This document shows, piece after piece, positions 42,478-43,017 of a DNA stretch of 64,000 nt. The notes under the pieces are model-generated. The model did no database searches. It was not told the origin of the DNA and saw only the letters and a program-made list of their open reading frames with translations. The DNA lies in assembly GCF_055900595.2 (NCBI RefSeq), contig NZ_CM148325.1. One strand, given 5' to 3'. Positions within the stretch are counted from its first letter, which is position 1; every line of letters begins with the position of its first letter. Position numbers and translations under genes: made by a program.

Positions 42478-42498
42478 GAGTTCCTGTCTTAAGCCACT

Positions 42499-42515
42499 TG
42501 CCGAAGTCAATTGGT
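42499..42515. promoter_or_regulatory. PdhR operator: perfect 17-bp palindrome AATTGGTCTTACCAATT
   Basis: Matches the PdhR box consensus (ATTGGT-N3-ACCAAT) and lies just upstream of the pdhR start codon. Confidence 0.7.
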
Positions 42516-43017
42516 CTTACCAATTTCATGTCTGTGACGCTAAAGTAACAAAGTATTCACCTTATGTCCATACAGGTTTTGATTGAAATCATGAAACTGT
42601 GCACATTTTAACAACTTGACATATATAACGTTTCAAAGTTGTAACTATGCACAAATGTAGACTTTACGTAGGAAAGGAATTTTTTAACGATTATTAAACT
42701 ATAAAAATCCGAATTGAACCGATTCACTTACCAATTTATCGGTTTTTAATTCAATAAAATTGAATTTATATTCATTTTGTATGTTGAGGGGATTTGAGGC
42801 TGACCTTTACAAACGGTTCCTTTTTAAGCAACTCATCTTCAACCATGCATAAAGCGGGTGCATTCGCTGCCGCATACCATTATTCTTTATCTGACGGAAG
42901 TCCTTTTGTAACAATTCAAACGCCTTTGATGTAAACAAATTAATACAACAAACGGAATTGCAAACTTACACACGCATCACTGCGTAGATCAAAAAAACAA
43001 TCACCGCACGAGGTTTC

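Follow-up and report, generated by a model that had tools for sequence, protein, structure and literature searches.

The 540-bp pdhR/aroP spacer very probably corresponds to the classical two-module divergent control region of Escherichia coli, with an accidental second dyad

Introduction

In Escherichia coli K-12, the pdhR-aceEF-lpd operon's PdhR box was described as AATTGGTaagACCAATT at position 122052, with a gSELEX score of 14/14 and a strong peak (Anzai, 2020, PMC7660256). The core GGTnnnACC is the part of this box that is required for tight binding of PdhR (PMC7660256). In gel shift experiments with a 37-bp probe a strong PdhR complex was obtained, and ChIP gave an 11.6-fold enrichment of the pdhR operator site. 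Two ArcA-P sites were located by ChIP-seq upstream of the operon, at K-12 positions 121868-121888 (−167 to −146) and 122007-122027 (−27 to −7) (Park, 2013, PMC3798270). For FNR, direct repression of pdhR-aceEF-lpdA was reported, with the ChIP-seq peak at 121,987 and the site located at −50.5 (Myers, 2013, PMC3688515). A ChIP-exo study of Cra (Kim et al., 2018) describes pdhR-aceEF-lpd as bound and repressed by this regulator and places Cra downstream of two promoters. The published Cra motifs are ctgaAtCGaTtcag and gcTGAAtCGaTTCAgc.

On the side of the divergent aroP gene, TyrR binds a strong and a weak box in the spacer (Wang et al., 1997, as cited in PMC7142922). Binding of TyrR with aromatic amino acid cofactors was described for the K-12 region and for S. 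bongori (PMC7142922 and papers cited there). As outlined in the same source, TyrR and aromatic amino acids activate the divergent and otherwise unproductive promoter P3, with RNA polymerase being kept off the overlapping main promoter P1 (PMC7142922). In addition, ArgR was found by ChIP-exo to bind upstream of the aroP promoter (Cho et al., 2015), and an 18+3+18 architecture has been published for ArgR operators.

Here, the corresponding spacer of a further sequence was compared with these systems.

Materials and Methods

All positions refer to the window, which is the whole stretch of 64,000 nucleotides that was analyzed. Window positions were converted to K-12 coordinates using the relation K-12 = 164569 − window. 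For the conservation analysis, 80 pdhR loci of various Enterobacteriaceae and Serratia with a total size of 421 kb were used, from which 79 spacers were aligned.

Results and Discussion

Identity and Architecture of the Spacer

According to the list of open reading frames, pdhR is located at 41713-42477 on the minus strand and is followed by aceE, while aroP lies in divergent orientation at 43018-44391 on the plus strand. The spacer between pdhR and aroP comprises 540 bp (42478-43017), with a G+C content of 35% compared to 51.6% across the window. E. coli strain Z0117EC0005, in which pdhR and aroP are annotated on either side, was found to be 100% identical over the spacer. The spacer is present in 5,423 of 5,426 complete E. 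coli genomes and has the same length in K-12. The original prediction, in which the region was described as an AT-rich divergent control region of pdhR and aroP, was correct in this respect, as had been known from earlier experiments.

The stretch 42478-43017 is very probably the classical divergent control region of aroP and pdhR-aceEF-lpd in E. coli, consisting of two modules and carrying a second dyad of accidental origin. The pdhR module would extend from 42478 to about 42800 and the aroP module from about 42806 to 43017. The PdhR and TyrR sites contained in it are real and already known, and nothing in the region is new in kind.

Between the window and K-12, 23 positions of the spacer differ. 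All of them are located between 42679 and 43001, and none falls into any known operator. A divergent aroP neighbor was identified in nearly all of the 80 pdhR loci, with spacers of 524 to 653 bp. In the alignment of 79 spacers, the mean identity to the window base was 0.67 over the whole spacer, and discrete blocks reached 0.94 to 1.00. The conservation is therefore patchy and motif-like, and the published FNR and ArcA coordinates fall on the most conserved blocks.

A generic scan for promoters and terminators of 42400-43100 gave no calls. The pdhR and aroP promoters were missed since the real ones are too weak for such a scan. The Rfam scan of 41500-43500 revealed no RNA family inside the pdhR/aroP spacer. 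In the neighboring pdhR-aceE spacer, the small RNA family tp2 was detected at 41555-41668 on the plus strand, opposite to the operon, with a score of 103 bits.

The pdhR Promoter and the PdhR Operator

The published 39-nt 5′RACE sequence, the last base of which is +1, was located at 42535-42573 (minus strand). The transcription start site of pdhR is thus the A at 42535 (minus strand), 58 nt upstream of the ATG. From the spacing, a −10 hexamer TACTTT (42542-42547) and a −35 hexamer TGGACA (42565-42570) can be proposed. A single pdhR promoter would fire from 42535.

With this start site, the PdhR operator at 42509-42525 covers transcript positions +11 to +27 and is situated just downstream of the start, where it is placed to block the pdhR promoter. 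It reads AATTGGT-CTT-ACCAATT, or AATTGGTaagACCAATT on the pdhR strand, and forms an AATTGGT-N3-ACCAATT inverted repeat with the GGTnnnACC core. The window contains the sequence AATTGGTCTTACCAATT a single time, at 42509-42525, and the reverse complement of this sequence is AATTGGTAAGACCAATT. Since the two differ, the box consists of two perfect 7-bp arms separated by the non-symmetric 3-bp spacer CTT and is not a perfect 17-bp palindrome. The original prediction had recognized the operator correctly, although it had called the box a perfect palindrome and had assigned it to 42499-42515, which is 10 bases too low.

A scan of the 64 kb for the PdhR box revealed one match with zero mismatches (14/14), and the next best matches had 2 to 3 mismatches. 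One of the weaker matches, AATGGGTGAAACCAATA at 9780-9796, shows 2 mismatches and an intact GGTnnnACC core and lies inside an open reading frame of 868 amino acids. It is probably a chance match.

The arms of the PdhR box were perfect in all 79 Enterobacteriaceae sequences, with a mean identity of 0.99 and a distance of 31 to 49 nt to the ATG. The published 37-bp gel shift probe corresponds to 42500-42536 and is identical to the window. The operator is therefore the same 17 bp at the same position (K-12 122044-122060, +11 to +27) as the PdhR box of the K-12 pdhR-aceEF-lpd operon (Quail and Guest, 1995; Ogasawara, 2007; Anzai, 2020, PMC7660256), with the same flanking 37 bp and no difference. 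PdhR, a dimer of the GntR family, would block transcription on this 7+3+7 operator and would be released by pyruvate.

ArcA and FNR Sites of the pdhR Module and Other Conserved Blocks

Two ArcA boxes were identified on the minus strand. Box 2, AGGTGAATACTTTGTTACTTT (42542-42562; −27 to −7), overlaps the pdhR core promoter and has a mean identity of 1.00 in the 79 sequences. Box 1, TAGTTTAATAATCGTTAAAAA, is located at 42681-42701 (−167 to −146), and its conserved columns are the direct-repeat elements GTTT and GTTAA. Sequences and positions of both boxes match the published ArcA-P sites exactly and without any difference. The FNR site TTGATTGAAATCAT (TTGAT-TGAA-ATCAT; 42579-42592), centered at −50.5, has 1 mismatch to the FNR consensus and a mean identity of 0.94. 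It is an exact match to the published site at the corresponding K-12 positions 121977-121990, again without difference (Myers, 2013, PMC3688515). Under anaerobic conditions, repression would be exerted by ArcA at −27 to −7 and −167 to −146 together with FNR at −50.5.

A CRP-like sequence, TGTGC-N6-TAACA, was found at 42598-42613 (−70.5). Its left arm has an identity of 0.46 and its right arm of 1.00, and it was not assigned to CRP. Further blocks conserved across the Enterobacteriaceae are GCACATTTTAACAAC (42601-42616), TGTAAC..TGCACAAATG (42636-42657) and TTTACAAAnGGTTnCTTTTTA (42806-42830).

The aroP Promoters and the TyrR Boxes

TyrR boxes are said to follow a consensus of the type TGTAAA-N6-TTTACA with an invariant G-N14-C pair, as reportedly found in Pittard's work. 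The strong box TGTAAACAAATTAATACA (TGTAAA-N6-AATACA; 42930-42947) ends 71 bp before the aroP ATG and agrees with this consensus in 10 of 12 positions. The weak box CGGAATTGCAAACTTACA (42953-42970), which had been absent from the earlier description of the region, lies at a distance of 23 bp from it, center to center, and agrees in 8 of 12 positions. G2 and C17 are kept in both boxes. In the 79 sequences, the arms of the strong box have identities of 0.87 and 0.94 (spacer 0.62) and those of the weak box 0.88 and 0.85 (spacer 0.55).

The TyrR pattern itself, with up to 2 mismatches, was found three times in the window compared to 2.4 expected matches, which is no rarer than chance. The reality of the strong box rests on conservation and on the literature. 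A TyrR-like box at 42930-42947, about 70 bp upstream of aroP, had been proposed before; the position was right, and the sequence is the known strong aroP box with conserved arms. No relevant hit was obtained when the literature was searched for the TyrR box sequence. A third candidate at 42907-42924 (TGTAAC-N6-AACGCC) was discarded, with an identity of 0.39 and a poor match to the consensus.

The −10 hexamer of aroP P3, TGGTAT, which was defined by mutagenesis (PMC7142922), is located at 42874-42879 on the minus strand (mean identity 0.82), inside the conserved block of the P1/P3 overlap at 42845-42888. Transcription from P3 would be expected to start near 42867 and that from P1 near 42893-42901. 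The order of weak box, strong box and P3 agrees with the deletion constructs of the same study. Compared to the K-12 aroP system of TyrR, P1, P2 and P3 (Wang, Yang and Pittard, 1997-1998, as far as reported in PMC7142922), the window has identical boxes, the TGGTAT hexamer and the same order of elements. Three of the 23 differing positions (42903, 42922 and 42923) lie between P3 and the boxes and none in the boxes, both of which are identical to K-12. TyrR on the strong and the weak box would recruit RNA polymerase to P3, and the overlapping main promoter P1 would be switched off.

The Cra-Type Palindrome

Upstream of ArcA box 1, a Cra/FruR-type palindrome, TGAACCGATTCA, is located at 42715-42728, reading AGTGAATCGGTTCA on the pdhR strand (minus). 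Its center is at about −186.5 from the pdhR start site. AGTGAATCGGTTCA has no mismatch to the 14-mer Cra consensus RSTGAAWCSNTHHW and 1 mismatch to the 12-mer TGAAWCGWTTCA. Compared with the Cra motifs RSTGAAWCSNTHHW and TGAAtCGaTTCA, 42715-42728 likewise showed 0 and 1 mismatch. The sequence TGAA(C/G)CG(A/T)TTCA (42715-42726) was present in 72 of the 79 spacers, where its distance to the PdhR box is fixed at about 207 bp. Substitutions within the palindrome were found mainly at positions 5 and 8, the two central low-information positions of the motif. Of the 71 occurrences of TGAA.CG.TTCA in the 421 kb of pdhR loci, 70 were located at this position of the spacer. A literature search for TGAACCGATTCA returned nothing relevant.

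A candidate second Cra-type site, TTTGAAACGTTATA (42624-42637, minus strand; center at about −94.5), shows one conserved half, TGAAAC(G), and departs from RSTGAAWCSNTHHW at 2 positions. Its mean identity is 0.81, and other genera read TCTGAAACGTTATT at this place. Judged by its letters, this may be a second site of the Cra type. Inside the pdhR coding region, a Cra-like sequence GTTGAATCGCCTCA was observed at 42309-42322, corresponding to K-12 122,247-122,260. This intragenic sequence may be the ChIP-exo site that was described as lying downstream of the promoters.

In comparison with Cra/FruR operators (consensus gcTGAAtCGaTTCAgc; RSTGAAWCSNTHHW), the palindrome at 42715-42728 shares the palindromic core, fits the 14-mer perfectly and varies mainly at the weak positions. 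Its location differs: the palindrome lies upstream of the start site, about 186 bp away, whereas the published account places Cra downstream of the promoters. That placement fits the intragenic sequence at 42309-42322 better than a site at −186.5, so that for the upstream palindrome we infer occupancy from the motif and its conservation; on these grounds, Cra probably occupies 42715-42728. Alternatively, TGAAnCGnTTCA could be bound by a regulator other than Cra, e.g., another protein of the LacI family, or could be conserved without binding of a protein. A site centered at −186.5 is indeed unusually placed for activation or repression, and the accessible text of the Cra study gives no coordinates that tie Cra to this exact site. 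The consensus sequences of other LacI-family proteins, however, are not known to share the outer TGAA/TTCA arms, and the palindrome has 0 mismatches to the published Cra 14-mer with variation mainly at the two low-information positions. In vivo, moreover, Cra was reported to bind and repress pdhR-aceEF-lpd. A regulator other than Cra, or conservation without binding, is hence somewhat unlikely. With Cra as the ligand, the palindrome at about −186.5 would probably allow Cra to tune the operon.

Tandem ARG Boxes

Downstream of the Cra-type palindrome, a predicted ArgR operator with two tandem ARG boxes is located at 42738-42776. It consists of box 1, ATCGGTTTTTAATTCAAT, the spacer AAA and box 2, ATTGAATTTATATTCATT. 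The boxes first became apparent in the consensus of other genera downstream of the palindrome, and in 51 sequences the best pair of ARG boxes starts +23 bp from the Cra-type box. The number of mismatches to wNTGAATwwwwATTCANw was 3 for box 1 and 0 for box 2, compared to a best total of 7, and usually 10 to 11, in 300 shuffled sequences. The inner halves of the two boxes form an 8-bp inverted repeat, AATTCAAT-AAA-ATTGAATT.

Known ArgR operators consist of two 18-bp ARG boxes that are 3 bp apart (39 bp in total). The pair in the window has exactly this 18+3+18 arrangement, and box 2 is a perfect match to the consensus. The difference lies in box 1, whose left half is degenerate and reads CGGTT instead of TGAAT, while box 1 of K-12 is a better match, with 1 mismatch (counted by eye). 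Located further upstream of aroP, at positions corresponding to K-12 121,793-121,831, the tandem boxes would bind ArgR.

Origin of the Second Dyad

The original prediction had listed a second dyad, ACCGAT-N14-ATCGGT at 42718-42743, as a further dyad candidate with a half-site. The dyad is present at these positions together with the PdhR-like half-site TTACCAATT (42728-36), and its true arms are 7 bp long (AACCGAT-N14-ATCGGTT; 42717-42744). It reaches from the Cra-type box into ARG box 1. Such repeats are not unusual in this AT-rich DNA: with perfect 7-bp arms and loops of up to 20 nt, 5 were observed compared to 1.65 ± 1.67 in dinucleotide shuffles (P ~0.06).

The left arm lies inside the core of the conserved Cra-type palindrome, and the right arm falls into the left half of ARG box 1, which is degenerate. 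The CGGTT mutation in ARG box 1 thus created the dyad. In K-12, TGTGATT is found instead of ATCGGTT, and the right arm holds 4 of the 23 positions that differ between window and K-12. For the segment 42700-42770, an identity of at least 99% to the window was found in 8 of 5,426 genomes and a K-12-like allele in about 4,190, and for 42738-42776, 9 genomes were identical to the window. The mean identity in the 79 Enterobacteriaceae sequences was 0.45 for the right arm and 0.37 for the TTACCAATT half-site. Since the left arm belongs to one operator and the mutated right arm to the next, the complementarity of the arms is accidental. As an inverted repeat, the second dyad is a strain-specific product of chance in a rare allele, formed by the Cra-type core and the mutated half of ARG box 1, and is no element of its own. 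Conservation in related species, on which the original prediction had made its dyads depend, was not found here: K-12 lacks the right arm and the allele occurs in 8 to 9 of 5,426 genomes.

Two functional explanations of the dyad were considered. The dyad or its half-site TTACCAATT might serve as an auxiliary PdhR operator that cooperates with the main box over about 210 bp, e.g., by DNA looping. An 11-mer, CTTACCAATTT, is indeed common to the dyad region and the main operator, the recurrence of a 9-mer of the PdhR box has a P of ~0.04, and a PdhR gSELEX peak at 121,966 lies between half-site and main box (PMC7660256). The half-site was also kept in 3 of the 4 other Escherichia sequences aligned, E. 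albertii reading TTACCAACT. The partner half-site, however, matches in just 1 of 7 positions, the GGTnnnACC core needed for tight binding is absent, and the scan gave no other site with up to 4 mismatches there. The half-site identity of 0.37 stands against an invariant main box in the 79 sequences, and gSELEX lists one box only for this spacer (PMC7660256). An auxiliary PdhR operator is accordingly extremely improbable, and neither a relation to PdhR nor a function of the dyad could be upheld. The other explanation is a functional hairpin or cruciform in this lineage, either as an RNA stem-loop that halts P3 read-through towards pdhR or as a terminator-like stem with a T-run on the plus strand. 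The extended stem GAATTGAACCGAT/ATCGGTT..AATTC reaches −9.5 kcal/mol on the plus and −11.8 kcal/mol on the minus strand (z ~ −3.5 compared to shuffles), and five T follow the right arm on the plus strand. Against this, the loop is 14 nt long, the terminator scan gave no call and no gene lies upstream on the plus strand. Furthermore, the allele is confined to 8 to 9 of 5,426 E. coli genomes, the stem is broken at 4 positions in K-12 and compensatory changes are absent in other genera, which makes such a structure highly unlikely. Accidental complementarity of two adjoining operators is the explanation retained here.

Lineage Variation and the PAIusp Island

About 1,060 of the 5,426 E. coli genomes have no full-length match to the spacer. 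Between E. coli lineages, an unusual degree of divergence was observed in the segment 42668-42847. In the three genomes inspected (CFT073, CS5L and AH21B066), the spacer is interrupted by PAIusp, an island with usp (annotated as tssD) and bacteriocin-immunity genes. The part of the spacer proximal to pdhR remains with pdhR as a diverged allele, which in CFT073 extends through the Cra-type box and the ARG-like region. The P1/P3 block and the TyrR boxes remain with aroP and usp in strains that carry the island. A deletion of the dyad region in these strains, as suggested by megablast, was rejected after finer alignment, in which the diverged allele was found to be kept on the pdhR side. With the Cra-type box on the pdhR side and the TyrR boxes next to aroP, this distribution fits two modules and puts the Cra-type box in the control of pdhR.

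The block TTTACAAACGGTTCCTTTTTAAG (42806-42830) has a mean identity of 0.75, and where the island is present, diverged copies of it are located on both flanks. On either side of the island, diverged copies of the conserved block 42806-42845 were found, which look like a duplicated integration site; in CFT073, the region concerned covers locus positions 820-6570. An IS3-family element was also observed in CFT073 (locus positions 961-2270), with its insertion point upstream of the pdhR start site by about 80 bp and an 8-bp target duplication that corresponds to window 42612-42619. This insertion lies between the pdhR core promoter on one side and ArcA box 1 with the Cra-type box on the other.

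Implications for the Control Region

As a discovery, the region carries little weight, since it is among the best-mapped control regions of E. coli. For the Cra-type palindrome at about −186.5, a role as a distal operator that acts by looping or as a roadblock, maybe together with the TGAAAC half-site at about −94.5, is conceivable but rather doubtful. If true, a roadblock would insulate pdhR-aceEF-lpd from the divergent P3 transcripts of aroP. In strains with PAIusp, those transcripts would exit the usp-imu island that is inserted upstream of the Cra-type box.

As a by-product of this study, a map of the spacer at base resolution was obtained. Almost all blocks conserved in the Enterobacteriaceae correspond to published or consensus-matching sites, namely those of PdhR, ArcA (two), FNR, TyrR (two), ArgR and the Cra type. 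The second dyad calls for caution in the interpretation of such regions: two unrelated palindromic operators that adjoin each other in AT-rich regulatory DNA can yield short inverted repeats.
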